NCBI GenBank assembly: GCA_011944185.1
Contig: GCA_011944185.1_3921.2
Source: a phage
Reading direction: 5' to 3' (one strand)
Length of the DNA stretch: 27,455 bases
A program made the translations under genes and the position numbers. Below the pieces are notes generated by a model, which saw nothing but the letters and a program-made list of their open reading frames with translations, ran no database searches and was not told where the DNA came from. Of this stretch, positions 4,287 through 25,558 are shown one piece after another. How positions within the stretch are numbered: the stretch's first letter is position 1; every line of letters starts with the position of its first letter.

Positions 4287-4315
4287 TTGACAAAGGTTGA
4301 TAGGTTCTATAGAAT
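4287..4315 (+). promoter_or_regulatory. sigma70-like promoter P1 (TTGACA-N17-TAGAAT)
   Basis: TTGACA at 4287-4292, 17-nt spacer, TAGAAT at 4310-4315. Shares the extended context GTTTGACAA with the copies at 4626 and 24275. Confidence 0.5.
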
Positions 4316-4625: not shown

Positions 4626-4654
4626 TTGACAATAGAGTATCAACAAACTAGAAT
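4626..4654 (+). promoter_or_regulatory. sigma70-like promoter P2 (TTGACA-N17-TAGAAT)
   Basis: TTGACA at 4626-4631, 17-nt spacer, TAGAAT at 4649-4654; about 36 nt upstream of the ATG at 4691, which has an AGAGG RBS. Confidence 0.55.
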
Positions 4655-4690
4655 TGGTACTCTTCATAAATTGAGATAGAGGTTTAAATA

Positions 4691-7408: not shown

Positions 7409-8139
7409 AAAACTGGAATCTTCGTTGCGGAAAAACTCAAAAACAACCATACAGTAATGAGTATTGGGAGTCTTTGAAATCTCAATCTCTGTGTATGCTT
7501 GAAGAAGCAAAAGAGCTTGTAAAAGCAATTGAAGAGAAAGACCCCATTGAGACACTGGATGCTCAGGCAGATTTGCAATATGTTCTTGACGGTTTGATTT
7601 ACCTGTCACAACATGACCATAATGGTGCTATGAAAGCTGTTTGTCATAATAATGACCTGAAATACACAGACGATTATGAAGAAGCTTTAAAACGTCTTGC
7701 AGATATTGAGAAGCGTACTGGTCAAGATTGTATTGTCAGAATGTCAGTAGTTGATGGTAAAGAGTGGTACGCAATTGTTCGTGTAGCCGATGGGAAGATT
7801 ATGAAGCAATCGAATCTCCCAAAAGTACAGCTTGGTGAATACATTGTAGAACTTGAAAGCCAAGAACTTTTTGTGGTAGTATCTGATACATGCGTTATCT
7901 GCAAAGGTATTGTAGGTAGCTTAAAGGATTTGGGTGTAGATGGTTTTGTAGAAGTTAATCCAATTACCTCTAAAGCAGATAAAGATTTCTGTAAAGAGAA
8001 CGGACTATGGATTGCAGATATTGTCTACTATGATGGTGAGCAGTTCCATGTAACCTCATACCCGAAACTGAATTATGATGCTAATAACCTGAAGTGCTGG
8101 TTAAAAGGGGTTGGTTATAATGGATTCACAGAACATTAA
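7384..8139 (+). CDS. hypothetical protein; possible MazG-like NTP pyrophosphohydrolase domain at the N-terminus
   Basis: 251-aa ORF with AAGGAG 5 nt before the ATG. Residues ~35-75 (LEEAKELVKAIEEKD...LDAQADLQYVLDGL) loosely fit the EExxE...D pattern of all-alpha MazG/dUTPase-like NTPases. Weak, unverified. Confidence 0.3.
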   Translation: MFNSRESVKNWNLRCGKTQKQPYSNEYWESLKSQSLCMLEEAKELVKAIEEKDPIETLDAQADLQYVLDGLIYLSQHDHNGAMKAVCHNNDLKYTDDYEEALKRLADIEKRTGQDCIVRMSVVDGKEWYAIVRVADGKIMKQSNLPKVQLGEYIVELESQELFVVVSDTCVICKGIVGSLKDLGVDGFVEVNPITSKADKDFCKENGLWIADIVYYDGEQFHVTSYPKLNYDANNLKCWLKGVGYNGFTEH

Positions 8140-8443
8140 TAAAGAAGGTGTGGCTCAGAAGAGCCACTTCTCAAACTATAATATTTCTATGACGGTGTTT
8201 ATGTATGACCCGTTACTTGAGAAGTATGGTGAGACTCCAGATACACTTCTGGATAATGAACAAGTTTTAAAAGCAGTCCTGTACAAATACGGGATTGACA
8301 TTGAGAAAGAGTATTCTTTTGAAATCTGCCAACACAGGAATACTTTCGGTAAAGTTGTGATGGCTCCGCTCTTTATGGGTGTAGAAAGGACTGACTATGG
8401 TTGGCTGTATCTGAAAAGAAACTTGGAGAAATACCGTGTTTAA
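8120..8443 (+). CDS. hypothetical protein
   Basis: The ORF track begins at a TTG at 8111; first ATG at 8120 with AAAAGGGG upstream. No motif recognised. Confidence 0.45.
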   Translation: MDSQNINKEGVAQKSHFSNYNISMTVFMYDPLLEKYGETPDTLLDNEQVLKAVLYKYGIDIEKEYSFEICQHRNTFGKVVMAPLFMGVERTDYGWLYLKRNLEKYRV

Positions 8444-8771
8444 AGCGAAAAAGCTATCTTATGATGATATCATTTCTGGCGCTAAATTAGGTGTTGACAG
8501 TCTCGGACAAGACGTTAAACACGGAGACACAGTGATGTACTGTGATGACCGAAGAGGAAGAAGTGCAATCTTGTTTGGAAAAGTTGTATGTAAAATACGC
8601 GGTAATTATGTTGTTTCAGATATGGATGTCAACGTCGCACAAAAGCTCAAAACAATCATGGATAGCAAGATTTCATCATGGCTCTTAAATTGTATGCACG
8701 CATCGTCAATCACAAAGGTAAGTGATAAGTTTTACGATATGTGGCAGAATGAGCAAATTTTCAAGATTTAA
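8436..8771 (+). CDS. hypothetical protein (GTG start)
   Basis: 111-aa ORF; GTG start at 8436 with GGAG 8 nt upstream; overlaps the previous stop; followed by a strong terminator. Confidence 0.4.
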   Translation: MFKAKKLSYDDIISGAKLGVDSLGQDVKHGDTVMYCDDRRGRSAILFGKVVCKIRGNYVVSDMDVNVAQKLKTIMDSKISSWLLNCMHASSITKVSDKFYDMWQNEQIFKI

Positions 8772-8777
8772 ACTAGG

Positions 8778-8799
8778 GAGCCTCTTCGGAGGCTCTTTT
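8778..8799 (+). terminator. Rho-independent terminator (TTCG tetraloop)
   Basis: Perfect GAGCCTC-TTCG-GAGGCTC hairpin followed by TTTT. Confidence 0.6.
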
Positions 8800-8817
8800 C
8801 ATCTGTAGGATTTAAAA

Positions 8818-11052
8818 ATGATTAAGACAATTAAAAAATCAAACGGTACAGTAGTAAGCTTTGACCCAGAAAGACTGAATAAATGGGCATCATGGGCAGA
8901 TAAGCGTGGAATTATCTGGTCAGAAGTCACTATGGAAGCTATGAAACGTGTCTACGAAGGTTGCACCACAAAAGAGATGCACCAAGCCATGATTGATGTT
9001 TGTGTTGATAAACAAACTCAAGAGTACTCAGACATGGCTGGACGGCTACTTCTGGGGATTATCTACAAAGAAGCCTTTGGAGGCTTTACTAAGGTTCCTA
9101 CACTGATTACCTTCGTTAAAAATATGGAGAGAGCAGGACTTTGGGAGAAGATGGATTATTCACAGGAAGAGCTTGAATACCTGCAAGGTTACATCGTGCA
9201 CTCAAAAGATATCTCTTACGGTTATGCAGTCTTGAAACAGTTCAGAGACAAGTATGGCATCCGTGATATTAAAACGGGAAGACTTTTTGAGTCACCACAA
9301 TTTATGTTCATGGGTATGGCTATGAAAGCCTTTGAGAAGCAACCAAAGCACCGTAGACTGCAAGATGTTATCAAGCTGTACACTTACCTATCTGACCTGA
9401 AAATTAACGCTCCTACGCCTTATTTAAACGGTTTAAGAGCAACTAAATCAGGCTATGCGTCATGCTGTTTGATTAAGGCAAATGATACTGCTGAATCACT
9501 TGGTATTGCTGCAAAGGTTGCTTATGATATGACTACAAAGCAAGCTGGTATTGGTATGCTGATGGAGACTCGCACTATTGGTGATGGTATCCGTCAAAAT
9601 ACGATTGAGCACATGGGTAAGCTACCTTATTACAAGCTTGTACGTTCATCTGTAGAGGCAAATAAACAGAAGAGTCGTGGTGGTTCAGCTAATAACTTCT
9701 ACACTGCTCTAGACCCGCAGATTGAAGATTTACTGCGTTTGAAGCACCCTACAACGGTTCCTTCTAAACGTATTAATGAGATGGACTACTCATTCGGTAC
9801 AAACGATTATTTCTGGCAGTGTGTTCAGTATGATACAGATTGGTTGCTATTCTCTTACAAAGATGCACCAAAACTCTATGACATGTTCTACACAGCATCT
9901 GCTGATGAGTTTGCTATGGCAGTTGGTCACGCAGTACATTCAGGAGTTAAGCACAGACGAGTCAAGGCTCGTGAAATTGCTAAGCTGTTTATTCAACAGC
10001 GTTATGCTACAGGTCGTGTGTATCCATTCTTCACTAACAATGCAAACACACATACACCATTTAAAGAACCATTGAAGATGTCAAATCTTTGTATGGAAAT
10101 TGTATTGCCAGTGTATGGTTTTGAGAAAGAGACAGACCTTTACAGAGACGATGCTGTGAAAGAGGATGGTGAGGTTGCTCTTTGCTTCCTAACTAGTTTG
10201 GTTGCAGGGAGAATTTCAGAAGATGAATACGCTGACGTTGCTTATTATGCTCTTGCAATGGTTGACTCCGTTATTGACCTTATGGATTATCCGTATCCGT
10301 CGATGCGTAACCATGTTCAGAAGCGTCGTTCTGTTGGGATTGGCCTTACAAATGTGGCTCACTACCTTGCGAAGAACTACGTGAACTACTCTTCACGAGC
10401 AGGTAAAACGAAGCTTCATGAGCTTGCTGAAATGCACTCTTACTACTTACACGAAGCTTCTTTAAGACTTGCTAAAGAACGTGGTGTGCCTGAGTATATG
10501 CAGTTCACTAAGTATCCTGAAGGATGGGTTCCTCCAAAGACAGCTAACAGGAAGATTGATGAGAAGCATGATGCAAAGCTAAGATATGATTGGGATGACT
10601 TAGCACAACGTATCAAAGAGAACGGTGGAATCCGTAACTCTGTATTAGAGGCTTACATGCCTAATGAGAGTTCTTCTCTGGCGACTAATACAACTAACGG
10701 CTTGTACCCAATTCGTGACTTTATTTTAACTAAAAAGTCTGCAACTGGTAACGTACTGTTTATTGTTCCAGATTATGAAGAGTTGAAGTATGTATATGAA
10801 ATTGCTTGGGATATTGATACCTTTGACCTGATTGATTGTTATGCAATTGTTCAAAAGTTCACTGGTCAAGCTATCTCTTCAGACTTCTATGTTGACTATG
10901 CAAAGTCTAAGAAGGTATCATTGGCTCAAGCTCTGAAGTATATGATTTATGCCAACTCGGTAGGTATGAAAACCATGTACTACCTTAACAGTCGCATCGG
11001 TGTAGGTAAGTCTGCACTGCAAGATGCTTATTGCGAGGGCTGTGGTGTTTAG
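8818..11052 (+). CDS. nrdA: ribonucleoside-diphosphate reductase large subunit (class Ia)
   Basis: N-terminal ATP-cone-like segment (IKKSNGTVVSFDPERL); PTPYLNGLRATKSGYASCCLIKANDTAES (active-site Cys region); NLCMEIVLP (Cys-Glu catalytic motif); PNESSSLATNTTNGLYP; C-terminal Cys pair YCEGCGV. These align to my recollection of T4/E. coli NrdA; 744 aa. Confidence 0.9.
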   Translation: MIKTIKKSNGTVVSFDPERLNKWASWADKRGIIWSEVTMEAMKRVYEGCTTKEMHQAMIDVCVDKQTQEYSDMAGRLLLGIIYKEAFGGFTKVPTLITFVKNMERAGLWEKMDYSQEELEYLQGYIVHSKDISYGYAVLKQFRDKYGIRDIKTGRLFESPQFMFMGMAMKAFEKQPKHRRLQDVIKLYTYLSDLKINAPTPYLNGLRATKSGYASCCLIKANDTAESLGIAAKVAYDMTTKQAGIGMLMETRTIGDGIRQNTIEHMGKLPYYKLVRSSVEANKQKSRGGSANNFYTALDPQIEDLLRLKHPTTVPSKRINEMDYSFGTNDYFWQCVQYDTDWLLFSYKDAPKLYDMFYTASADEFAMAVGHAVHSGVKHRRVKAREIAKLFIQQRYATGRVYPFFTNNANTHTPFKEPLKMSNLCMEIVLPVYGFEKETDLYRDDAVKEDGEVALCFLTSLVAGRISEDEYADVAYYALAMVDSVIDLMDYPYPSMRNHVQKRRSVGIGLTNVAHYLAKNYVNYSSRAGKTKLHELAEMHSYYLHEASLRLAKERGVPEYMQFTKYPEGWVPPKTANRKIDEKHDAKLRYDWDDLAQRIKENGGIRNSVLEAYMPNESSSLATNTTNGLYPIRDFILTKKSATGNVLFIVPDYEELKYVYEIAWDIDTFDLIDCYAIVQKFTGQAISSDFYVDYAKSKKVSLAQALKYMIYANSVGMKTMYYLNSRIGVGKSALQDAYCEGCGV

Positions 11053-11107
11053 TTTTAATAACTATGAGGGTCGTAAAAGACCCTCTAAAATTAACTTTGG
11101 AGAGACT

Positions 11108-11365
11108 ATGAAAGACTTAATAGCAAATCACGAGTGGCCTATATACTTGCTCCACAAACCTCGAAAAACGCTGTACTATGTGAGTAGCACAGATATGATG
11201 ATAAAACAAAATGATGACTCATGGGTCGCTGGTGTCTCTTACATCTCTACAGCAGATGGTAAAATCTATGCAAGACCTTATGACATGTTTAATAAAGAAA
11301 ATTGGGAAGTTTTAGACAGAAAACAAGCCTTAGAGATGATAAAGAAAGGAGAAATCACATTATGA
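11108..11365 (+). CDS. hypothetical small protein
   Basis: The ORF track entry 11024..11365 overlaps the nrdA 3' end; first ATG with an RBS (GGAGAGACT) is at 11108. Stop overlaps the nrdB start as ATGA. Confidence 0.45.
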   Translation: MKDLIANHEWPIYLLHKPRKTLYYVSSTDMMIKQNDDSWVAGVSYISTADGKIYARPYDMFNKENWEVLDRKQALEMIKKGEITL

Positions 11366-12435
11366 TTAACCAACACCCAATCTTTTTAGGTGGTGAGAGA
11401 AAGACATTTGACTCACTTAACAAGCACTACCCAAAAATCTTTGAGCTATATAAACAACAAAAAGCGCAAGACTGGTCAGAAGATGAGTTCCCTTTTGAAC
11501 AATCACGTCTTGATTTTGAAAGTGTGCCAGCATCAATGTCAGGTGTAATGCTTGAGATTCTTAAGTGGCAGTGGGAAGCAGATACCCAAGTTGCTAAAAG
11601 TTTAGCGTTTGCTTTTGCACCATTCATCTCTGATGACATTTATGCAACTGCAATTATGAAGCAGTCTGAGATTGAAAACCTACACGCCCTGACTTACTCG
11701 GAGATTGTAAGGCAATGTATTAAAAATCCTGAAACAATCTTAGATGAGATTAACCAGAACATTGCTGTACAAGACCGATTAAAAACTGTGAATCGTGTTC
11801 TTGAAGAATTGCTGGATGAAGGTATAAACTATCGACTGAGTTATGTCCGTGACTCACTTCTGGACAAAGACCCTTTACACTTCCATAAAGTGATTCTGAA
11901 AGGTCTATTTGCAGTGACTGCACTGGAAGGTATATCTTTTATGGCATCCTTTGCATGTACTTTTGCACTTGATGCTCAAGATAAATTTCAGGGTATTGCT
12001 CAAGCTGTTCAGAAAATTATGCTTGATGAAATCCTTCACACTAAAATTGATATTGAAGTTTTAAAAGAAACTTTAAGAGACGATGAGTGGCAAAAAGCTT
12101 TCCAACAAATTCTTCCAGAGATTAAAGTAATCTTAGATGAAGTAGTTGAAAGCGAAGAAAAATGGTCGTATTATATCTTCTCCGAAGGACGTGCTGTAGT
12201 TGGTTTAAATACAAAGCTTCTCCATGAGTGGGTTTACTATAATGCTGCCCCACTGTATGATATGTTTGGCATTCCCAGAGATTTTGTAGCTCCTAAAGAA
12301 CCACCTTTGAAGTATATGATTAAGAAGATGGAAATTGATAAAGAGCAGAATGCTAATCAGGAGCAACAGAACGGCGCGTACTTATTGAATACTGTTGTAG
12401 ATGATTTGAATAGTGGATTTTTAGAGGTTCCTTAA
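11362..12435 (+). CDS. nrdB: ribonucleoside-diphosphate reductase small subunit (class Ia)
   Basis: 357 aa from the ATG at 11362 (RBS AAGGAGAAA). Size and predicted all-helical ferritin-like character fit NrdB, and it lies between nrdA and the redoxin gene. The ORF track start at 11302 is probably an upstream non-ATG extension. Diiron ligands not individually verified. Confidence 0.8.
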   Translation: MINQHPIFLGGERKTFDSLNKHYPKIFELYKQQKAQDWSEDEFPFEQSRLDFESVPASMSGVMLEILKWQWEADTQVAKSLAFAFAPFISDDIYATAIMKQSEIENLHALTYSEIVRQCIKNPETILDEINQNIAVQDRLKTVNRVLEELLDEGINYRLSYVRDSLLDKDPLHFHKVILKGLFAVTALEGISFMASFACTFALDAQDKFQGIAQAVQKIMLDEILHTKIDIEVLKETLRDDEWQKAFQQILPEIKVILDEVVESEEKWSYYIFSEGRAVVGLNTKLLHEWVYYNAAPLYDMFGIPRDFVAPKEPPLKYMIKKMEIDKEQNANQEQQNGAYLLNTVVDDLNSGFLEVP

Positions 12436-12677
12436 TGACTTATGTGATTTACTCCAAAACTGGATGCCCTCAGTGTGAGACTGCAAAGAATTTTGCAAAA
12501 GCTCGTGGTATTGACCATGTTGTGAGAATGTTAGGGCAGGATTATGAACTGTCAGACCTGATGGATATTGCACAGATGCCAGTTCGTCAGATGCCGTTCA
12601 TCATGAAAACTGATGGACAAAACCTAAAACCTGTTGGAACGCTACAGAATTTTATGGCAGAGGTGAATAATGCTTAA
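12435..12677 (+). CDS. nrdH: glutaredoxin-like NrdH/thioredoxin-family redoxin
   Basis: 80-aa protein with CPQC redox motif near the N-terminus (SKTGCPQCETAK), a size typical of NrdH-redoxins; immediately downstream of nrdB (TAATG overlap). Confidence 0.7.
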   Translation: MTYVIYSKTGCPQCETAKNFAKARGIDHVVRMLGQDYELSDLMDIAQMPVRQMPFIMKTDGQNLKPVGTLQNFMAEVNNA

Positions 12678-12876
12678 ACGCCTTTGGGAAGGTTTGGTTG
12701 TTGATGCACCAGCTATTGTGATTGGTATGCTTGTTGTTAACCTATTTACTGATTTTGAACAAGGTTCATTGTTTGGGGCCATGTTACTATGGGTTATCTT
12801 TGAAATATTAGAGATACAGCTAGGCATCACTGAAAAACTGAGAAAACTCGTTTCTAAGTTTTCTAAAAAGATTTAA
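12670..12876 (+). CDS. small hydrophobic (membrane) protein
   Basis: 68 aa with a long hydrophobic stretch (VVDAPAIVIGMLVVNLF...LFGAMLLWVIFEILEI); GAGGTG RBS; overlaps the nrdH stop. Confidence 0.45.
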   Translation: MLKRLWEGLVVDAPAIVIGMLVVNLFTDFEQGSLFGAMLLWVIFEILEIQLGITEKLRKLVSKFSKKI

Positions 12877-12883
12877 AATGAAA

Positions 12884-12905
12884 GGGTCTCTTCGGAGACC
12901 TTTTT
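12884..12905 (+). terminator. Rho-independent terminator (TTCG tetraloop)
   Basis: GGGTCTC-TTCG-GAGACC hairpin followed by TTTTT. Confidence 0.6.
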
Positions 12906-12924
12906 AGCATGTAAAGGGGCAATA

Positions 12925-15069
12925 ATGAACAAAGTACAGATTATTAAAAAGAATGGCTCACTTGAAGAACCTGATATCAAAAAAGTTTTAGCGGCAGTAA
13001 CAAAGTCAGCTAACAGGGTTGGATATAAAGAACTGCCACCAGATGTTACCCAAGCTCTTGAGTCAGCATTCATGAGGATTTTGGTAAAGTCCACTAAGCA
13101 GAATAATTTGCTTATCTCGGTAAATGATATTCACAGTATTGTTGAAGGTGCTTTGGCAGAGGTCAATCACGAGATTTATGAGTCTTACTCAACATACAGA
13201 AATTACCGTAAAGAGGTTGCTCAAAATTGGGACGAACTCTACCAGAAGACTAAAGATACACTCTTCTTAGGTGACCGTGAAAATGCTAACTTTGACAGCA
13301 GTTTAATTTCTACGAAAGGTTCAATTATCCGTGGTTACCTGACTAAAGAAATCTTTAAACAGTATCATCTAACACCAGAGGAACTTGAAGCCATTGAGAA
13401 AGGCTTTATCTATATCCACGATTTGAGAGACCTGATTTTTGGTGGTATTAACTGTTGCCTGTTTGACATTGGTAAAGTACTAAAAGGTGGCTTTGAAATG
13501 TCCGGCATTGAGTACTGTGAACCTAAATCTGTACTGTCAGCGTTGCAGGTTATTGGTGACGTAGTACTTTCAGCAACTGCACAGCAATTTGGTGGTTTTA
13601 CTTTAGCAGAGATTGATAAGGTACTTGTACCGTATGCTAAGAAGTCTCTACGCTATCATGCTGAGAAAGCATCATCTTATGGTATTCCTAAAGAGCATTA
13701 CCACAATTATGTAATGGAGCAGTTACAAATTGAACTGACTCAAGGTTTTCAGTCACTTGAGATGAAACTAAATACCGTACCTTGTAGCCGTGGTGATTTT
13801 GCATTCACAACTTTAACATTTGGTTTACTTGACTCAGATATGTCTAATGAGGATAATCGACTACAATACATGATTGCAAGTACTCTCCTAGATGTTCGTA
13901 TGAATGGACAAGGCAAGAGTAAAAAGCCTGTTGTATTCCCTAAACTGGTTTATATTTATGACCAGAAGAGACATGATGAAAATATCTGTCAAGGTCACCT
14001 GTACAGTAAAGCTATTGAGTGTTGCTCTAAAGCAATGTACCCAGATTTCTTAAGTGTGTCTGGTCATGGTGCTGTAGCAGAGGCTTTTGAGCGTTCTGGT
14101 AAGGTAATTTCACCGATGGGTTGCAGAGCCTTTTTATCTCCATATCTTAATGAGGGTGGAGAAGAGTTCTACGTTGGTCGTGCTAACATTGGTGCTGTAT
14201 CTTTGAACTTACCAATGATTTACCAGTATTCTAAAGAGAATGGTTTAGATTTCTGGAAAGAGCTTGATAAGTACCTAGAGATGATTCGCAACTTCCACAA
14301 GAAACGCTACGAAATGATTGCTAATATGCCAGCAAGTTCTAACCCTCTTGCGTTCACACAAGGTGGTCTGTACAAAGGAACTAAGAAACCTACTGACAAG
14401 GTTGGTTGGGATATTGTGAAGTCCTTCACAGCTTCTTTTGGTGTTACTGCGCTTGATGAGTTGTCTGTTCTTGCTGAAGGTAAACGACTTCATGAAGTTG
14501 GAAGCTATAGTTTTGCATACGATGTTCTGGCATACATCAACATGAAAACTGAAGAGTTTAAAAATGAAGATGGCTTCTTATATGCCGTCTATGGTACTCC
14601 AGCAGAATCACTTTGTGGAACTCAGCTAAAACAGTTCAGAGATATGTTTGGCGTTATCAAAGGTGTTTCTGATAAGGAATACTTTACAAACAGTTTCCAT
14701 ATGAATGTTGCAGCAGACATCTCACCATTTAAGAAGCAGGACTTAGAAGAGCCATTCTTCCATATCTGTAGAGGTGGGAGAATCCAGTATGTCAGGGTAG
14801 CTAACCCAGAAAACTTAACAGCACTTAAAAGCTGTATTACAAGAGGGATGTTGAAAGGTTTCTATCAGGGGCTTAACTTTGACTTAGCAATCTGTGAACA
14901 TTGTGGTAACAGACCAAAGGCTGATGTTGAAGAATGTGAAGTTTGTCACTCACATGATATCTCTGTGATTAACAGGGTGTGTGGGTATCTTGGATGGACT
15001 AAGATTAAAGGTGAATCCCGAATGAACGATGCAAAAATCGCTGAGATTCGTGACAGAGTTTCTATGTAA
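12925..15069 (+). CDS. nrdD: anaerobic ribonucleoside-triphosphate reductase (class III)
   Basis: N-terminal ATP-cone-like segment (IIKKNGSLEEPDIKKV); C-terminal Cys4 zinc ribbon (CEHCGN...CEVCHSHD) followed by the glycyl-radical motif RVCGYLG; 714 aa. Confidence 0.9.
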   Translation: MNKVQIIKKNGSLEEPDIKKVLAAVTKSANRVGYKELPPDVTQALESAFMRILVKSTKQNNLLISVNDIHSIVEGALAEVNHEIYESYSTYRNYRKEVAQNWDELYQKTKDTLFLGDRENANFDSSLISTKGSIIRGYLTKEIFKQYHLTPEELEAIEKGFIYIHDLRDLIFGGINCCLFDIGKVLKGGFEMSGIEYCEPKSVLSALQVIGDVVLSATAQQFGGFTLAEIDKVLVPYAKKSLRYHAEKASSYGIPKEHYHNYVMEQLQIELTQGFQSLEMKLNTVPCSRGDFAFTTLTFGLLDSDMSNEDNRLQYMIASTLLDVRMNGQGKSKKPVVFPKLVYIYDQKRHDENICQGHLYSKAIECCSKAMYPDFLSVSGHGAVAEAFERSGKVISPMGCRAFLSPYLNEGGEEFYVGRANIGAVSLNLPMIYQYSKENGLDFWKELDKYLEMIRNFHKKRYEMIANMPASSNPLAFTQGGLYKGTKKPTDKVGWDIVKSFTASFGVTALDELSVLAEGKRLHEVGSYSFAYDVLAYINMKTEEFKNEDGFLYAVYGTPAESLCGTQLKQFRDMFGVIKGVSDKEYFTNSFHMNVAADISPFKKQDLEEPFFHICRGGRIQYVRVANPENLTALKSCITRGMLKGFYQGLNFDLAICEHCGNRPKADVEECEVCHSHDISVINRVCGYLGWTKIKGESRMNDAKIAEIRDRVSM

Positions 15070-15079
15070 AACTTGACAT

Positions 15080-15120
15080 GGTGGTGTGAGTCTTGATAGG
15101 CTTACATCACCTTTTTTATT
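15080..15120 (+). terminator. Rho-independent terminator
   Basis: 11-bp stem GGTGGTGTGAG / CTTACATCACC (two G-U wobbles) with 10-nt loop, followed by TTTTTTATT; directly after the nrdD stop. A TTGACA hexamer sits just upstream at 15073-15078. Confidence 0.55.
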
Positions 15121-16988: not shown

Positions 16989-17300
16989 ATGAGCAAAATC
17001 TATAACACTCGTAAATTACAGATTGCAATCCTGTGCCAGTTTATGGCTGATAAGCACAACTCACACTATTGTGGTACAGGTTTCCTTATGCAAGGTCGTG
17101 GCTACATTAGCTTCAAAGAAGCTGTGAAGATGTACAATGAGCACCCTGAAGATGACAAAGAGTTGAAACAACTGAAGCTTACTTATGACAAGAAGCGTAA
17201 GAAAATTGTATGCTTGAACAACCTTATCAAGCAAACTGAAAACGTTTATGATGCAATTGGTGAAGAGGGTTTCTTAAAAGTCTTGAAAATAGCTCAGTAA
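16989..17300 (+). CDS. hypothetical protein
   Basis: 103-aa ORF followed by a perfect terminator. No motif recognised. Confidence 0.45.
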   Translation: MSKIYNTRKLQIAILCQFMADKHNSHYCGTGFLMQGRGYISFKEAVKMYNEHPEDDKELKQLKLTYDKKRKKIVCLNNLIKQTENVYDAIGEEGFLKVLKIAQ

Positions 17301-17312
17301 ATGTATATGATT

Positions 17313-17341
17313 AGGGAACTGTAAAGGTTCCCTTTTTATTT
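17313..17341 (+). terminator. Rho-independent terminator
   Basis: Perfect AGGGAAC / GTTCCCT stem with 7-nt loop, followed by TTTTTATTTT. Confidence 0.65.
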
Positions 17342-19545: not shown

Positions 19546-21327
19546 ATGAGTAAGTCACTTTACGCAGTACCAGCAGGTCTTAATGCAGATGCTTACAAGG
19601 CATCACATATATATCAGTATCCAGATGCTACGCAATATCTTATGTTAAACCTGACACCACGTAGTGATAAATGGTTTAACAGCCCTTTAGCAATTGACGG
19701 TGTAGTGGCTTTTGGTATTCAACGTTTTGTTAAAGATTACTTGATAGACCACTGGAACGCCACCTTCTTTGAACGTGACAAAAAAGAAGCAATTGACGAA
19801 ATCTTAGAAGTCATGAACGGTGTTCTGGGTAAAGATGCTATCGGTAGAGAACATTGGGAAGCACTTCACGACTTAGGCTATCTACCAGTTGAAGTATACG
19901 CTGTAGAAGAAGGCACAGTTGTTCCTATGCGTGTACCAATGATTGTCTTCCAGAACACTGTTTCAGGTTTCCATTGGGTAGCTGGGTATCTGGAAGATGC
20001 TTTCTCTGCTGAGATTTGGAAGGCTTGTACCATTGCAACTATTGCATTGCACTACAAACGTATCTGTAAGAAGTGGTCTGACCTTACTTGTGACAACGAC
20101 TTGCATTTGCCTTATCAGTGCCATGACTTTGCTATGCGTGGTATGTCCGGCTTTACTGATGACGCATTTAACGCTGTAGGCCACTTAACCAGCTTTAAAG
20201 GAACTGATAGCTTCCCTGCTGTATATACAGCTAAACGCATCTATGGACAGTCCTACCCAATCTCTGATATTGGTAGCTCTGTACCAGCCACTGAACACTC
20301 TGTGATGTGTGCAAACATTGCTTGGGAAGGTGGTAATGAGTTGGTTGAAGAAGAAAGACGCTTTAAAGGTGAGTTGCAAACCTTCCGTCGCTTCTTAACA
20401 GAAACTTATCCAACTGGTATTGCAAGTGTTGTTTCAGACACTTATAACTTCTGGAGAACTGTGTCAGAAATCTTACCAGCACTCCGTAAAGAAATTATGG
20501 AACGTGATGGCAAACTGGTAATTCGTCCTGACTCTGGAGACCCTGTACACATTGTCACAGGTTATAAAGCAATCCACTTAGAGTGTGCTAAAAAGGCTTA
20601 TTATGAGCACCTAAGCAATCTGGAAGCCAGTGACACAATGCTGAATGCTGTTCTGAACATGAAGCTTGAAAACATCAGCTATGGTATTGCTGGATGGCTA
20701 CTGTCAGAAGGCTACGAAATGGTTGTTGACAGAGAAGACTTTGAAGTTGCTGATACAGTGATGTTGAAGAACGCTTATATGGTTGGTTCTGCAAACGTTG
20801 TAACACGCCCTGTAGCAGAGATTGATGGAGCTATTAAGACCTTGTATAACATCTTTGGAGGAACTATTAACTCTAAAGGTTTTAAGGTACTGGATGAGCA
20901 CATTGGCCTTATCTATGGCGACTCTATCACGTTGGAACGTGCAAACGAAATCCTGAAGCGTCTGTATGAAATGGGGTTTGCAAGCTCTAACGTGGTGTTT
21001 GGTGTAGGCTCTTACACTTACCAGTACATGACTCGTGACACCTTTGCATTTGCTGTCAAAGCAACTCTTGCAAGCATTGGTGGCAAAGAGATTATGCTTG
21101 CAAAAGACCCTAAAACAGATAGTGGTGTTAAGAAATCTGCCTTTGGTGGTGTAGCACCTATGTGGGATGGTGAGAATTTGAAAGCTGTAGATGGCTATGG
21201 ATTCCAGAGCTTTGCAGATGCACTTGAACATCCAGCTTGTGCTTTACGTTTAGTCTTTAGCGACTCTGAGCAGTACGGTTACACAACTCTTGGTGATATT
21301 CGAAATAATATTGACAATCAGCTTTAA
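19546..21327 (+). CDS. nicotinamide phosphoribosyltransferase (Nampt/NadV)-family protein; possibly nicotinamide ADPR-transferase-like
   Basis: N-terminal LNADAYKASHIYQYPD fits the (D)xYKxxH signature of the Nampt/NAPRTase family; 593 aa; AGAGAGAG RBS; followed by a terminator. Catalytic residues not individually verified. Confidence 0.7.
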   Translation: MSKSLYAVPAGLNADAYKASHIYQYPDATQYLMLNLTPRSDKWFNSPLAIDGVVAFGIQRFVKDYLIDHWNATFFERDKKEAIDEILEVMNGVLGKDAIGREHWEALHDLGYLPVEVYAVEEGTVVPMRVPMIVFQNTVSGFHWVAGYLEDAFSAEIWKACTIATIALHYKRICKKWSDLTCDNDLHLPYQCHDFAMRGMSGFTDDAFNAVGHLTSFKGTDSFPAVYTAKRIYGQSYPISDIGSSVPATEHSVMCANIAWEGGNELVEEERRFKGELQTFRRFLTETYPTGIASVVSDTYNFWRTVSEILPALRKEIMERDGKLVIRPDSGDPVHIVTGYKAIHLECAKKAYYEHLSNLEASDTMLNAVLNMKLENISYGIAGWLLSEGYEMVVDREDFEVADTVMLKNAYMVGSANVVTRPVAEIDGAIKTLYNIFGGTINSKGFKVLDEHIGLIYGDSITLERANEILKRLYEMGFASSNVVFGVGSYTYQYMTRDTFAFAVKATLASIGGKEIMLAKDPKTDSGVKKSAFGGVAPMWDGENLKAVDGYGFQSFADALEHPACALRLVFSDSEQYGYTTLGDIRNNIDNQL

Positions 21328-21341
21328 AAGTATATGATAAG

Positions 21342-21364
21342 AGGCTCCTACGGGAGCCTTTTTA
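21342..21364 (+). terminator. Rho-independent terminator (TACG loop)
   Basis: Perfect AGGCTCC-TACG-GGAGCCT hairpin followed by TTTT. Confidence 0.65.
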
Positions 21365-21380
21365 ATTTCTGGAGAAGATT

Positions 21381-21902: not shown

Positions 21903-24269
21903 ATGCGCATGGTAAATGACCACGCAGAAGTGATTAAGAGTTCAACTTCTTTAGAGACGTCTCAAGCACAGATTACAATGACACCTGAGATGTTCAGCCT
22001 TTTGAGTTCTGGTGTGTATACCTTTAAAGAAAGGGCAGTGATTCGTGAACTGTCATGTAACGCAGTAGATGCTCAGAAAGAAGCTGGAAAAGAGAACATT
22101 CCATTCCATGTGCATTTACCTACTCGTTTTGAGCCTTACTTCGAAGTTCGTGATTTTGGAACTGGATTGACTCATGATAAAGTTATGAGTTTGTACCTAA
22201 ACTATGGAGCTTCTACGAAGAATGACTCTAATGACTACATTGGTGCAATGGGTATCGGCTCAAAGTCACCATTTGCAATTGCTCAGTCATTCACAGTATC
22301 TAGCTATGTTGACGGTGTTGTTAATAAGTACTCTGTTTATCTTGAGAATGGTATCCCTCAAGTAACTAAGCTGACAACTAACCCAACAAAAGAACCTAAT
22401 GGTTTAGCTGTACGTGTGGCAGTTGCTGACCACCGTATCTCAAAGTTCTTTGAAGAAGCTGGGAATGTGTACTCATACTTCACTGTAAAACCAGAAAGTA
22501 ATATTGAGTACGACGATATATTAGCAGATATGAACGTCATTGCCCGTGAAGAAGGTGTTTATGATGCCATGATTCATAAGCAAAGCTGGCGTTCTGGCGC
22601 TAACAGAACAGAGTTTAATGTGGTGATGGGTAACATTGCCTACCCTGTTAACATGGAAGCATTACTTGGAGATGATTTCTTCAAAGTATTGCCAGAATTT
22701 TTCCGTAGGAGCGTAGACCTTGTAAACATCTACATGCCTATTGGTTCAGTTGCTATTGCAGCTTCTCGTGAAGCATTGCAGATGAATGACACGACAAAAA
22801 ATGTTATCATTGAGGCTACTAAAAAGATAACTGAAGCCATTACAAAGGATGTTATCAAGAAAGTTAATAGCCAACCTACACTCATGGATGCTGCACAGGC
22901 TTATGCTGAGTTACGTTTGAACTCACGAGAGATGTTTAATGCTGTGTGTCCAAAGCTAGAGTGGGGAGGCGTTAAGCTTGATTCTCTGGAAGAAGAATTA
23001 CTAAACATTCGTCGTGGGATTATCTACGCAGAAGACGGCTCAGTCATTTATGAACGTGACGGTAAAGGTAATATTAAGGTTGATAGGAACGGAAACAACA
23101 TCCCTAAAGTAGATTTTCTTTATGACCCAGTTGCTTATGTCAAGTTCAACTCTTTAGAGAGTAAGATTCGTGCAACAGCACTTTCCTACACTCAAGAGGC
23201 AAGTATGTTCAATATCTTTGGTGCAATGCGTAAAAGCCAAATTGAACAGTTTTTGTTCGTGATTAATGACCGTCGCAATAAAAATGGTACTGAGAAGACT
23301 GTAGGACGAAATCAAATCTTGCGTGGTGCATGTCGAGACTACGCTAACGAGTCAGGCCTGTTCCACAGATACAATGGCATTGTGTTTGTATTCTCGACTG
23401 AAAAAGAGTTAGACGACCTAATCAACCTACACAAACTTGATAAAAGCTTGTTAAAGATTGTGAAGATGTCTGATAAGGAACATCACTATCAGCGTAAAGA
23501 AGCTGTAAGAGGTGTTGTAAAACTCTGGAAAGCTGTTCCAGCAGAAGGTGTAGCTTCCTATAAAGAGGTTTCAGAGGACTTTGATACAATTGAAGAACCT
23601 CAGCTTTACATTAAGGCAGTTGGTGACACAGTTGATGGTAGATGTTTTTGCTCATCTCCAGAAGATGTAGCTAAGTCAGTTGCTAATGTTACAGGTAAGA
23701 CAGTCTATGTTTTCCGAAAAGCAAATTGGAAAAAGATACCAGAAGACTGGATTGAAGTAGATGAGCAACTCTTGAACGATAGCTTAACTGATGTTCACTG
23801 GATTAATCATAACAGGTATATGACACGCATCTACATGAATGGTGTTCTTGACCTTACAAGCAGTTGGATTATTGCCAGAAACTTTACATTCAATAACAGG
23901 AAGATTTCTCGTGGCTATTGCTATTCACGAGATACTAGCAAAACTATCTTCCTAGAAGGTAATGAAGAGGCTGTAGAGGCTATGTTCGGTAAAATCCAAT
24001 ACGTTGCTGCACCATTTGCATACACTTATACTATTAGTAGATTGCAAACTTTGAAAGAATGCCTTGACAATGACACAAAACTGTACAAAAAGATTAAAAA
24101 AGCAGGTGACCGCATGGTTATCAAGCTGACAAACTATCTTTCAAAAAGAAAACAAGAAAACTTCTTGCTTTCACACTTAGATTGGAATAAAGTATCACCT
24201 ATCGAAGTGAGTAAGTTTTTAGGCTTTAATGTGAAATGTGTTCCAGAAGGTACAACAATTTACGATTAA
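21903..24269 (+). CDS. rIIA: rIIA-like protein (GHKL/HATPase_c-type ATPase domain at N-terminus)
   Basis: GHKL motifs: IRELSCNAVDA (N box), VRDFGTGL (DxGxG), IGAMGIGSKSPFAIA (G box). Segments FSLLSSGVYTFKERAVIRELSCNAVDAQ, NDYIGAMGIGSKSPF and PIGSVAIAASREALQMNDTTKNVI match my recollection of T4 rIIA; 788 aa. Confidence 0.75.
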   Translation: MRMVNDHAEVIKSSTSLETSQAQITMTPEMFSLLSSGVYTFKERAVIRELSCNAVDAQKEAGKENIPFHVHLPTRFEPYFEVRDFGTGLTHDKVMSLYLNYGASTKNDSNDYIGAMGIGSKSPFAIAQSFTVSSYVDGVVNKYSVYLENGIPQVTKLTTNPTKEPNGLAVRVAVADHRISKFFEEAGNVYSYFTVKPESNIEYDDILADMNVIAREEGVYDAMIHKQSWRSGANRTEFNVVMGNIAYPVNMEALLGDDFFKVLPEFFRRSVDLVNIYMPIGSVAIAASREALQMNDTTKNVIIEATKKITEAITKDVIKKVNSQPTLMDAAQAYAELRLNSREMFNAVCPKLEWGGVKLDSLEEELLNIRRGIIYAEDGSVIYERDGKGNIKVDRNGNNIPKVDFLYDPVAYVKFNSLESKIRATALSYTQEASMFNIFGAMRKSQIEQFLFVINDRRNKNGTEKTVGRNQILRGACRDYANESGLFHRYNGIVFVFSTEKELDDLINLHKLDKSLLKIVKMSDKEHHYQRKEAVRGVVKLWKAVPAEGVASYKEVSEDFDTIEEPQLYIKAVGDTVDGRCFCSSPEDVAKSVANVTGKTVYVFRKANWKKIPEDWIEVDEQLLNDSLTDVHWINHNRYMTRIYMNGVLDLTSSWIIARNFTFNNRKISRGYCYSRDTSKTIFLEGNEEAVEAMFGKIQYVAAPFAYTYTISRLQTLKECLDNDTKLYKKIKKAGDRMVIKLTNYLSKRKQENFLLSHLDWNKVSPIEVSKFLGFNVKCVPEGTTIYD

Positions 24270-24274
24270 AGTGT

Positions 24275-24304
24275 TTGACAAGGGGCTTTGAAGCCCCTTA
24301 GAAT
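24275..24304 (+). promoter_or_regulatory. sigma70-like promoter P3 (TTGACA-N18-TAGAAT) with a perfect hairpin in the spacer
   Basis: TTGACA at 24275-24280 and TAGAAT at 24299-24304; the whole 18-nt spacer is the palindrome AGGGGCT-TTGA-AGCCCCT (24281-24298). Same GTTTGACAA context as P1 and P2. Lies between rIIA and rIIB. Confidence 0.5.
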
Positions 24305-24348
24305 AGCCTCACAAATTGATTGATTAACTAACAAGAGAGAGTAATAAG

Positions 24349-25458
24349 ATGACTACTAAAACTAAAGCACAGATTGACGCAGAAATTTACAAACTGGTTA
24401 AAGAAGGTAAGCTGACCAAAACAGCTATTGCACAGAAATTTAACACTTCAACCCGTTCAGTTGGTCGTGCTGTAGAGCGTCATGAAGCAACCCTAAAAGG
24501 GAATAAAAAGGCAACTTCTGCACCAGCTACGAAGACTTTGAAACAAGTTGCTAAGACTTTTAAAAAGAAAGCTGGCAAACCAGTTGAAAAGGTCGTTAAA
24601 GAGACTGTACAGAAAGCTCCAGTAAATAAACTGCACGAAGCTATGCAGAAAGATGACAAAATTGAGTACATGATTACTGGTGACTCTGTAATTATGACTT
24701 ATGGTTCAGAATCTGAAATTGTTGAGTCTACTCATCCAAACTATCAAGAGATTGTAGTTCATGTTGTGAAAGGTGAGTTCAAGAAAGCATTTGAACTGAT
24801 GAACATCCGTAAGTCTATCGAAAACTTCACTCAGGGTGCTATTACAATCAAAGGTGACAAGCTATTCTACGGTGCTGTTGAGATGCGTTCTACTCTGGTT
24901 GACCGTATTCTCCACATGATGAAGACTGGTGATAAAGGTTTTGAACGACTTGTAATGTTCTTCGAAAAACTGATGGAAAACCCATCTAAAGATTCTGTAG
25001 AACAACTTTGGGGATTTGTATCTCACCTTGATGTTGAAATTGATGAAGAAGGCTACATCATTGGTTGGAAGAAAGTCTCTACTCGTGAAGGCAAGCTGGT
25101 TGACTCTCACACCTACAAAGTGCCTAATGATTTGGGTAACATTGTAGAAATGCCACGTTGGATGGTTGATAATAACCGTAACGTAACTTGCTCTCAAGGT
25201 CTTCATGTTGGTGCTTGGGATTATGTTCGTTGCTTCTCAGGTGATACAATCCTGAAGGTTCGCGTACATCCACGAGATGTTGTATCTGTTCCAACTGATT
25301 ACAACGATATGAAGATGCGTTCCTCTCGTTATGAAGTTGCAGCAATCGTTGATAATCAACGTAAAGTGCTGGAAGCATGGGACGGTAAGACTGAAGCTTT
25401 GCATGTCATCGTTGGCACTGCTGGTGAACTCATCTCTCAACGTAAACGTGAAATCTAA
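24349..25458 (+). CDS. rIIB: rIIB-like protein
   Basis: Segments ITIKGDKLFYGAVEMRSTLVDRILHMM, FFEKLMENPSKDSVEQLW and VRVHPRDVVSVPTDYNDMKMRSSRYEV match my recollection of T4 rIIB (VRIEGGSLFYQNIELRSGLVDRILDSM; VKVHPRDVVSIPIDYNDAKMRTCQYEV); immediately downstream of rIIA; AGAGAGAG RBS. Confidence 0.75.
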   Translation: MTTKTKAQIDAEIYKLVKEGKLTKTAIAQKFNTSTRSVGRAVERHEATLKGNKKATSAPATKTLKQVAKTFKKKAGKPVEKVVKETVQKAPVNKLHEAMQKDDKIEYMITGDSVIMTYGSESEIVESTHPNYQEIVVHVVKGEFKKAFELMNIRKSIENFTQGAITIKGDKLFYGAVEMRSTLVDRILHMMKTGDKGFERLVMFFEKLMENPSKDSVEQLWGFVSHLDVEIDEEGYIIGWKKVSTREGKLVDSHTYKVPNDLGNIVEMPRWMVDNNRNVTCSQGLHVGAWDYVRCFSGDTILKVRVHPRDVVSVPTDYNDMKMRSSRYEVAAIVDNQRKVLEAWDGKTEALHVIVGTAGELISQRKREI

Positions 25459-25474
25459 TAAGTAATTTCTTAAA

Positions 25475-25500
25475 AGGCTGCTTCGGCGGCCTTTTTTATT
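25475..25500 (+). terminator. Rho-independent terminator (TTCG tetraloop)
   Basis: AGGCTGC-TTCG-GCGGCCT hairpin (one U-G wobble) followed by TTTTTT. Confidence 0.6.
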
Positions 25501-25527
25501 TGTATTTTGTGCAGAGTGCTGTATAAT
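25500..25527 (+). promoter_or_regulatory. candidate promoter (TTGTAT-N16-TATAAT)
   Basis: Perfect -10 TATAAT at 25522-25527 with a weak -35-like TTGTAT 16 nt upstream; about 30 nt before the ATG at 25559. Confidence 0.35.
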
Positions 25528-25558
25528 TGTTGTCACGATAAACTAAACAGGAGAACCA

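Follow-up and report, generated by a model that had tools for sequence, protein, structure and literature searches.

A G/C-rich hairpin filling the spacer of a predicted sigma-70 promoter between rIIA and rIIB of a Felix O1-like phage

The rIIA-rIIB junction

The subject of this study is a 30-bp element at positions 24275-24304 of a phage contig of 27,455 nucleotides (GCA_011944185.1_3921.2 of GenBank assembly GCA_011944185.1; the whole stretch is hereafter called the window), in which the spacer of a sigma-70-type promoter between the genes rIIA and rIIB consists entirely of an inverted repeat. A 1-kb query around the junction of the two genes matches 251 phage records, nearly all of them from Felix O1-like myoviruses (Felixounavirus, Ounavirinae). 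The closest record is that of Escherichia phage vB_EcoM-Ro111lw (Ro111lw), with 95.8% identity and with rIIA and rIIB annotated beneath the match. The phage from which the window derives is a Felix O1-like Felixounavirus and not a T4-like phage. The window falls within the long early/middle transcription unit given as genes 97-131/1-23 in the Felix O1 paper, and its open reading frames (ORFs) of note all lie on the plus strand.

The rIIA coding sequence (21903-24269, plus strand) is defined by the ORF list and by the annotation of the matching Felixounavirus records. It ends with TAA at 24267-24269 and would be the source of the read-through RNA that contains the hairpin. The rIIB coding sequence (24349-25458, plus strand), with ATG at 24349, is supported by the same two sources and by tblastn, in which its product matches T4-like rIIB with 32-36% identity. 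The flanking genes carry the rIIA and rIIB annotation in more than 200 Felixounavirus records, which together with the tblastn match bears out the context assigned to the element in a preliminary description of this DNA. The identity of the genes rests on record annotation and tblastn, as Pfam has no family for either; a Pfam-A search with the rIIA (788 aa) and rIIB (369 aa) proteins (window 21903-25455) yielded no hits.

The order at the junction, read on the plus strand, is GATTAA AGTGT TTGACA AGGGGCT TTGA AGCCCCT TAGAAT AGCC. The stop codon and an A/T-rich lead-in (TAAAGTGT, 24267-24274) lie directly 5' of TTGACA (24275-24280), which reads as a consensus -35 hexamer. The 18-nt spacer (24281-24298, AGGGGCTTTGAAGCCCCT) is AGGGGCT-TTGA-AGCCCCT, a perfect 7-bp inverted repeat. 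The coordinates and sequence given for this palindrome in the preliminary description are correct, and the stem grows to 8 bp by pairing of A24280, the end of the -35 hexamer, with T24299, the start of the -10 hexamer. In the 8-bp form the 5' arm AAGGGGCT occupies 24280-24287 (the 7-bp version begins at 24281), the loop TTGA, which is the sole freely varying part among relatives, 24288-24291, and the 3' arm AGCCCCTT 24292-24299, its final T being the first base of the -10 hexamer TAGAAT (24299-24304). The latter is found where a canonical terminator has its U-tract. According to standard sigma-70 geometry, transcription would start at A24311, 7 nt past the -10 hexamer. The rIIB 5' leader (24312-24348, plus strand), the 3' part of which is conserved in relatives, contains the Shine-Dalgarno (SD)-like sequence GAGAGAG at 24335-24341. 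Downstream of rIIB, a canonical intrinsic terminator on the plus strand (25472-25501; AAAAGGCTGC-TTCG-GCGGCCTTTT and a T-tract), designated t2 in the Felix O1 paper, marks the end of the rIIB transcript; it was used as a control for stem conservation.

The spacer hairpin

The hairpin alone folds as RNA with -12.5 kcal/mol; in a 59-nt context the energies are -15.1 kcal/mol for RNA (z = -2.2) and -8.2 kcal/mol for DNA (z = -2.6). At the base composition of the window, 7 Watson-Crick pairs arise with a probability of about 8e-5 per spacer. As the window contains nine TTGACA-N15-20-TANNNT sites, the overall chance of such a stem is about 7e-4. Equally good folds within 30 nt were found at only 10 loci in the 27.4-kb window, seven of which are canonical T-tract terminators. 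In energy and G/C-richness, and in its position a few nucleotides after a stop codon, the junction hairpin falls into the class of the phage's own intrinsic terminators (e.g. 25472; Felix O1 Table 2), several of which also have GGGGCT/AGCCCC-type stems. It differs from them in that the -10 hexamer stands in for the U-tract.

Canonical intrinsic terminators were defined by a G/C-rich hairpin directly followed by at least about five U in 8 nt. No U-tract is present 3' of the junction hairpin (CCCCUUAGAAUAG), and the 8 nt after the stem contain three U only. The tail reads UAGAAUAG after the 7-bp stem and AGAAUAGC after the 8-bp stem, neither of which is U-rich. A consensus terminator scan skips the junction hairpin, yet reports 25472, 21339, 17313, 15080, and 27268. 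No match at E ≤ 1 to the covariance models of Rfam 15 was obtained on either strand of 24100-24500. A terminator acting on the minus strand was rejected, its tail being UGUCAAACAC and minus-strand genes being absent here. Extrusion of a cruciform was considered unlikely given a stem of 8 bp and a loop of 4 nt, and the stem is probably too short for an RNase III site.

Two further stable hairpins without U occur in the window. GTGGCTC-AGAA-GAGCCAC (8150-8170) directly follows a gene that ends at 8139. GAGGGTC-GTAAAA-GACCCTC (11066-11085), followed by TAAAAT, comes after ORF 8818-11052 (stop at 11052), the counterpart of the coding sequence annotated in Ro111lw as ribonucleoside triphosphate reductase alpha chain. 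Both may be intercistronic RNA elements of the same kind as the junction hairpin. A listed ORF, 11024-11365, and the matching Ro111lw coding sequence overlap the end of the reductase gene and the hairpin; judging by the upstream GGAGAG, a start at ATG 11109 looks more likely for this ORF.

Conservation of the junction

The junction was read in 30 loci of IMG/VR and in GenBank records. TTGAC(A/T), GGGGCT, AGCCCC, and TA(G/A)AAT are invariant across Felixounavirus, Suspvirus (SUSP2), and Mooglevirus-like phages, a set in which the identity of the rIIB proteins goes down to about 76% and in which the rIIA 3' end and the rIIB leader diverge heavily. The -35 hexamer is TTGACA in 29 of 30 close relatives and TTGACT in the remaining locus (L028), and some relatives have TAAAAT instead of TAGAAT as the -10 hexamer. 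The loop takes four forms, TTGA, TCAA, GCAA, and GAAA, the latter two being GNRA loops that occur in the junction hairpins of several relatives. Presence or absence of one A results in a spacer of 18 or 17 nt. The sole stem change within the close clade is a G to A replacement in two loci (L008 and L031), which creates one C.A mismatch and leaves a G/C stem of 6 bp. In the same loci the control terminator after rIIB is equally invariant, with one change from G.U to A-U, so that invariance of the stem over this evolutionary distance is uninformative.

Beyond the alignable clade, per-genus shuffle tests took the place of a formal covariation count. At seven of eight Ounavirinae rIIA-rIIB junctions the hairpin is more stable than its shuffled versions (p ≤ 0.017 each). 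The stems of these seven hairpins are of at least five kinds, and all seven lack a U-tract. The hairpin of Erwinia phage phiEa21-4 is GGGCTG-GAAA-CAGCCC and that of Pectobacterium phage Arno162 is TGGTGGCC...GGCCACCA. Yersinia phage P778 contains TTGACA-N17-TTAAAT with a 15-pair hairpin around the -10 hexamer, and an IMG/VR relative (L032) contains TTGACA and a hairpin over the -10 hexamer. Among the eight junctions only that of a Hafnia phage, with a gap of 20 nt, lacks the hairpin. The rIIA-rIIB junction is syntenic in all of the more than 30 relatives examined. Judged by these sequence comparisons, the combination of hairpin and promoter is not a product of chance.

A predicted promoter for rIIB

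TTGACA-N18-TAGAAT, between TAA 24267 and ATG 24349, matches the sigma-70 consensus at 11 of 12 positions, and the hexamers are kept at a spacing of 17-18 nt across three genera while the flanks diverge. Sites of the form TTGAC[AT]-N16-18-TA[GAT]AAT occur only four times in the 87-kb genome of Ro111lw, all on the plus strand and in the early region, and all four are represented in the window (355, 4287, 4626, and 24275). Three of them share (A/G)TGTTTGACAA...TAGAAT, and TAGAAT is the -10 hexamer also at 4287 and 4626. In published reverse transcription-PCR (RT-PCR) experiments with Felix O1, ORF2 (rIIB) was maximal at 10 min and ORF1 (rIIA) at 25 min. This timing fits separate promoters for rIIA and rIIB, with the reservation that end-point RT-PCR is a crude measure. 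The conservation of the hexamers, the rarity of near-consensus sites, and the RT-PCR timing lend support to the promoter proposed in the preliminary description: TTGACA-N18-TAGAAT very likely is a real sigma-70 promoter for rIIB, its activity being predicted from the sequence. The predicted start at A24311 lies 12 nt downstream of the hairpin, and RNA initiated at this promoter therefore cannot form the hairpin.

Resemblance to the PeSL cassettes of RB49

A related architecture is known from the T4-like phages RB49 and phi1, in which A/T-rich gaps contain promoter-early stem-loop (PeSL) cassettes, composed of a sigma-70 consensus promoter and a stable stem-loop that is "frequently polyG followed by polyC" (Arbiol et al. 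2010, PMC2839356). The stem-loop was proposed to terminate or attenuate transcription arriving from upstream and the promoter to restart it, and placement of the hairpin in the promoter spacer is one of the two commonest layouts (PMC2839356). The PeSL211/210 stem-loop lowered lacZ expression to about the same extent as rrnB T1, a strong terminator, and one PeSL promoter yielded about 13,000 Miller units. Promoter and terminator/attenuator activities in reporters have been demonstrated for individual PeSLs of RB49/phi1 only (PMC2839356). PeSLs, a few of which are found in core modules, were also proposed as sites of recombination (PMC2839356). Further PeSLs occur in PST/T4 and nt-1/KVP40 (Arbiol et al. 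2010, PMC2839356; Comeau et al. 2014, PMC4122927).

The RB49 sequence (NC_005066) was read directly as a positive control. PeSL211/210 reads TAA..AAAGTTG TTGACA-GGGGATCACGTATCCCC-TATACT, PeSL206/205 TTGACA GGGGATCGGTGATCCCC TATAAT, and PeSL191/190 TTGACA GGGGAGGATAACTCCCC TACAAT; PeSLs 206/205, 191/190, 187/186, 210/209, and 192/191 all resemble 211/210, all lack a U-tract, and the copies vary in their arms with compensatory changes. The junction element shares with them the succession of stop codon, A/T-rich lead-in, TTGACA, a G-run/C-run hairpin that fills a spacer of 17-18 nt, TAnAAT, SD sequence, and ATG, as well as the lack of a U-tract and near-identity over AAAGTG-TTGACA-GGGG. Compared with PeSL191/190, 16 of 17 positions over AAAGTG-TTGACA-GGG are identical (p ~0.04). 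GATTAAAGTGT in front of TTGACA aligns with TAA..AAAGTTG of the RB49 PeSLs, 5 nt only separating the stop codon from the -35 hexamer. The lead-in is A/T-rich, as is typical of PeSLs, and a role as UP element is only putative given its length of 5 nt. By analogy, PeSL211/210 provides the best available evidence that a hairpin without U in a promoter spacer may lower read-through.

The junction element differs from the RB49 cassettes in several respects. Its host phage belongs to the Ounavirinae and is not T4-like. It lies between core genes and is the sole spacer-hairpin copy in the genome, whereas RB49 has about 50 copies among ORFans. Its inner stem reads GGGGCT where that of the RB49 cassettes reads GGGGAT, the spacer measures 18 nt in most Felixounaviruses, and, the junction being syntenic in relatives, there is no sign that this copy mediates shuffling. 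When 50 kb of RB49 and an 87-kb Felixounavirus genome were scanned in the same way for spacer hairpins of 7 bp or more, RB49 yielded six and the Felixounavirus a single one, at the junction. Perfect-stem hairpins that overlap promoters with at least 10 of 12 matches were found at only four sites in a strict search of the whole genome, so that the spacer hairpin as such is not a repeated motif in this phage.

Other known systems resemble the element in part. Phage T4 reportedly has separate rIIB promoters at the end of rIIA, early ones and MotA-dependent middle ones. A promoter of rIIB near its start is common to T4 and RB49 and is predicted for the phage studied here; T4 differs in its use of MotA-dependent promoters. 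In RB49 (163,813-163,876), an extended -10 promoter, TGGTATAAT, lies upstream of rIIB and is followed by the U-less hairpin GGGCGGC-GATA-GTCGCCC. This hairpin differs in being located 3' of the -10 hexamer, within the leader, and in RB49 a small ORF intervenes between rIIA and rIIB. A promoter and a GC hairpin are thus found beside rIIB also in a T4-like phage, in another geometry. In bacteria, intercistronic hairpins such as the repetitive extragenic palindromic (REP) elements, e.g. that of malE-malF, stabilize mRNA. Like the junction hairpin, they are stable, lack U-tracts, and lie between cistrons, where they can block 3' exonucleases and set differing levels of the upstream and downstream genes; unlike it, they are not embedded in a promoter. 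Short DNA hairpins within promoters are used by the virion RNA polymerase of phage N4, a phage-encoded enzyme that recognizes them on extruded single-stranded DNA. The hexamers at the junction differ in being a plain sigma-70 consensus. A hairpin promoter of the N4 type was rejected, since the authors of the Felix O1 study report no phage-encoded RNA polymerase.

Repeated cassettes in Felix O1-like genomes

In the small-ORF region of Ro111lw (80-86 kb), the genes are separated by regular gaps of about 90 nt that are filled by two repeated cassettes. Both types lie between small ORFs at 80,590-85,630 in Ro111lw, 8,100-13,630 in wV8, and 8,630-12,000 in Felix O1. Type A forms a long hairpin, CTTTACA(N)GGGGCTTA - loop - TAAGCCCC AGATAAAG, whose loop contains TANNNT 17 nt after TTTACA; type B reads ..TCAACGGGGAGGG..CCTTCCC-ACTAAATAAAGTCCTTAAACTAGGAGATTCAAAATG. 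The first 24 nt of type A are identical to the rIIA-rIIB element at 20 positions. Copies of type A display compensatory changes, e.g. GGGGCTTA/TAAGCCCC versus GGGGCTAT/ATAGCCCC. Since the outer stem of type A includes TTTACA, this hexamer may be structural, besides or instead of serving as a -35 hexamer. The core TT[GT]AC[AT]N0-2GGGG occurs seven times in Ro111lw, with 1.1 occurrences expected; six of the seven are intergenic on the plus strand and are followed by GGGGCT...AGCCCC-type hairpins, and four of these lie in the small-ORF region. The sister copies in Ro111lw have long loops with a -10-like hexamer in the loop, and the spacer-hairpin copy is single in the window.

The cassettes correspond to direct repeats of 57 bp and 39 bp that were reported without interpretation in the Felix O1 paper, and to DR_1 to DR_9 of the wV8 record; the text of the wV8 paper contains nothing on promoters, terminators, or repeats. 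Local blastn comparison of Felix O1, wV8, and Ro111lw revealed that every indel in the small-ORF region has a cassette at either end; Ro111lw, for instance, has a gene between two type A cassettes where wV8 has one cassette. Indels bounded by cassettes are the signature of PeSLs, here displayed by the sister cassettes. In addition, the translation-initiation block CTTAAAC(TA)GGAGA(T/A)TCAAAAATG (CTTAAAC(TA)GGAGATTCAAAAATG; in short form CTTAAAC..GGAGAWTCAAAAATG) is nearly identical in the Felix O1-type cassettes and in RB49 PeSLs 211/210, 192/191, and 199/198 (p < 0.003, shuffles), and a block that follows the -10 hexamer, ACACATCAA, is likewise common to both. The shared blocks suggest exchange of cassettes, or strong convergence, between unrelated coliphage lineages. 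Felix O1-like phages thus appear to have a PeSL-like cassette system that resembles that of RB49. It is conceivable, though we regard it as tentative, that the Ounavirinae own a PeSL-type cassette family, represented by the direct repeats and DR_1 to DR_9, and that the rIIA-rIIB element is a domesticated copy of this family with a minimal loop that became fixed in the core genome and there uncouples the expression of rIIA and rIIB.

Other promoter-hairpin composites in the window

The preliminary description mentioned a similar layout downstream of nrdD, and this holds: at 15073-15117, TTGACA (15073-15078) abuts the nrdD terminator, a 14-pair hairpin (15080-15111) followed by TTTTTT. Felixounavirus, Suspvirus, and Mooglevirus-like loci all retain the site, with a compensatory change from G-C to A-U in the stem. 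The 3' arm contains a weak -10 candidate, TAGGCT. Five relatives have, in place of the site, an insert that begins right after the nrdD stop codon. At 17283-17338 (TTGAAA-N17-TATGAT) and 21311-21367 (TTGACA-N16-TATGAT), promoter-like sequences lead directly into canonical T-tract terminator hairpins. As predicted from these sequences, transcripts of the two promoters would start within the 5' arm and escape termination, whereas transcripts arriving from upstream would stop. At 4626-4663, a TTGACA-N17-TAGAAT promoter of the TGTTTGACAA...TAGAAT type has the arms of a 10-pair stem (AGAGTATCAA / TTGGTACTCT) on both sides of its -10 hexamer. The third TGTTTGACAA...TAGAAT promoter (4287-4315) lies inside a predicted ORF and has a 10-bp palindrome, TTCTATAGAA, over the -10 hexamer. 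Finally, at 25496-25530 the T-tract of the rIIB terminator runs into a conserved promoter (..TTTGTATTTTGTGCAGAGTGCTGTATAAT), the TATAAT of which is invariant in all relatives; a clearer -35 hexamer, TTGAAA, is found in the Mooglevirus-like loci. This site is a terminator-then-promoter cassette in uncompressed form. How polymerases pass the many terminators of the early/middle unit, and how its timing is set, was not answered in the Felix O1 paper. The composites suggest that transcription past terminators is achieved by restarts at overlapping or adjacent promoters.

Interpretation and alternative explanations

The rIIA-rIIB element is conserved and looks functional, and its architecture was already described in 2010. 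The PeSL layout is new for the Felix O1-like lineage as far as the searchable literature is concerned, in which no paper that links PeSLs to Felix O1-like phages was found. We consider it probable that the element combines two signals in one compact PeSL-type cassette, a sigma-70 promoter for rIIB and an RNA hairpin that acts on read-through from rIIA. As duplex DNA, TTGACA-N18-TAGAAT would serve as a promoter of the host sigma-70 RNA polymerase, from which an rIIB transcript starts at about 24311. In RNA made by polymerases that arrive via rIIA, the spacer would fold into the 8-bp G/C-rich hairpin just after the rIIA stop codon and would attenuate or terminate their transcription. Where molecules are read through and later cut, the hairpin would cap the rIIA 3' end. 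The rIIB transcripts made from their own promoter would escape the hairpin because their start lies downstream of it, and the net outcome would be an uncoupling of rIIA and rIIB expression within 30 bp. The hairpin in read-through RNA at the rIIA 3' end, which the preliminary description had listed as a possible pause or processing site, is retained as the best reading; by analogy with the PeSLs, pausing or processing may be narrowed to the action of a terminator or attenuator.

Several observations weigh against this interpretation. By the standard rules, the junction hairpin is not an intrinsic terminator, as it lacks a U-tract, and neither a promoter nor a terminator is annotated at the junction in the matching records. 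An 18-nt G/C-rich spacer is suboptimal for sigma-70, and no data on transcription start sites or 3' ends in Felixounavirus/Felix O1 were found in the searchable literature. The junction stem displays no covariation, being invariant in the close clade with a lone variant that breaks a pair; a requirement for RNA structure and one for DNA sequence are hence not separable at this stem. In phiEa21-4 and Arno162 no recognizable -35 and -10 hexamers accompany the junction hairpin. Such hairpins without a promoter imply that the hairpin belongs to the junction independently of the promoter, which in the Felix O1 clade is wrapped around it. In these two phages rIIB must be transcribed through the hairpin, which argues for attenuation or stabilization and against full termination. 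As to termination, pausing, and stabilization, the missing U-tract and the relatives without promoter speak against full termination, and the RB49 reporter would, by analogy, speak for a strong effect.

The main rival, to which we assign a limited but appreciable likelihood, is an intercistronic element for stability or processing of mRNA, around which the promoter is merely wrapped. A long rIIA-rIIB RNA would be cut in the A/U-rich rIIB leader and trimmed in 3' to 5' direction to the hairpin, which would give the rIIA message a half-life of its own. Such a role agrees with the lack of a U-tract at the junction in any genus, in genomes rich in canonical T-tract terminators, with the phiEa21-4/Arno162 hairpins, where rIIB expression needs read-through, and with the U-less hairpins directly after stop codons at 8150-8170 and 11066-11085. 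It is less readily reconciled with the stem-loop of the architecturally identical RB49 PeSL211/210, which was as strong as rrnB T1 in an assay that is blind to the difference between termination and decay. The hairpin might also have no present role and be the footprint of a PeSL-like mobile or recombinogenic cassette that was fixed between core genes and kept for its promoter context. PeSLs have been proposed as recombination sites, and the 5' half of the element (TAAAGT..TT[G/T]ACA(A)GGGGCTT) is common to the cassettes that bound the small-ORF indels of Felix O1, wV8, and Ro111lw. Such a relic is unlikely, however, since sigma-70 spacers normally drift freely, yet here the arms are invariant while the loop drifts; junction hairpins persist in genera with unrelated stems, and the junction is syntenic in all relatives examined.

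The preliminary description also regarded the palindrome as an ideal operator, AGGGGCT-N4-AGCCCCT, from which a dimeric regulator of phage or host would repress or activate the rIIB promoter at its core. Both arms are invariant in sequence over three genera while the centre varies, as expected of two half-sites, the position is ideal for repression, and a small "putative transcriptional regulatory protein" is annotated in Ro111lw. Invariance is not diagnostic, however, as the terminator after rIIB is just as invariant in the same phages, and what distant relatives keep is the pairing, with unrelated arms. The exact palindrome occurs only three times in the 87-kb genome of a relative, the two other copies lying in terminator-like contexts and not on promoters. 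In the sister cassettes the same GGGGCT/AGCCCC arms are 11 nt apart, again in a terminator-like setting, which is incompatible with one dimer geometry, the arms of the RB49 PeSLs vary with compensatory changes, and the GNRA loops point to RNA. We therefore do not uphold the operator and rate it as very improbable. A chance palindrome in a chance promoter-like match deserves hardly any credence. Promoter-like hexamer pairs are indeed common in this A/T-rich genome (53 found versus 33 expected in half of the window), but conservation across genera refutes a fortuitous origin, to which the low probability of the stem per spacer and the restriction of near-consensus sites to four in 87 kb are likewise opposed.

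Implications

Hairpins without U that are nested in promoters are missed by terminator finders and by promoter finders alike, which is of relevance to the annotation of phage genomes. Felixounaviruses are used in biocontrol and diagnostics, and the element is a 30-bp candidate for a part that combines an insulator with a promoter. Overlapping terminator/promoter cassettes offer a testable answer to the question raised for Felix O1, in that each cassette would reset transcription for the next gene. If the Ounavirinae do own a cassette family of their own, PeSL-type cassettes are not a speciality of T4-like phages and either move between unrelated coliphage lineages or have been reinvented repeatedly. 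In evolutionary terms, occurrence of the PeSL layout and of cassette-bounded indels beyond the T4-like phages would mean that this mechanism of modular shuffling is more widespread.

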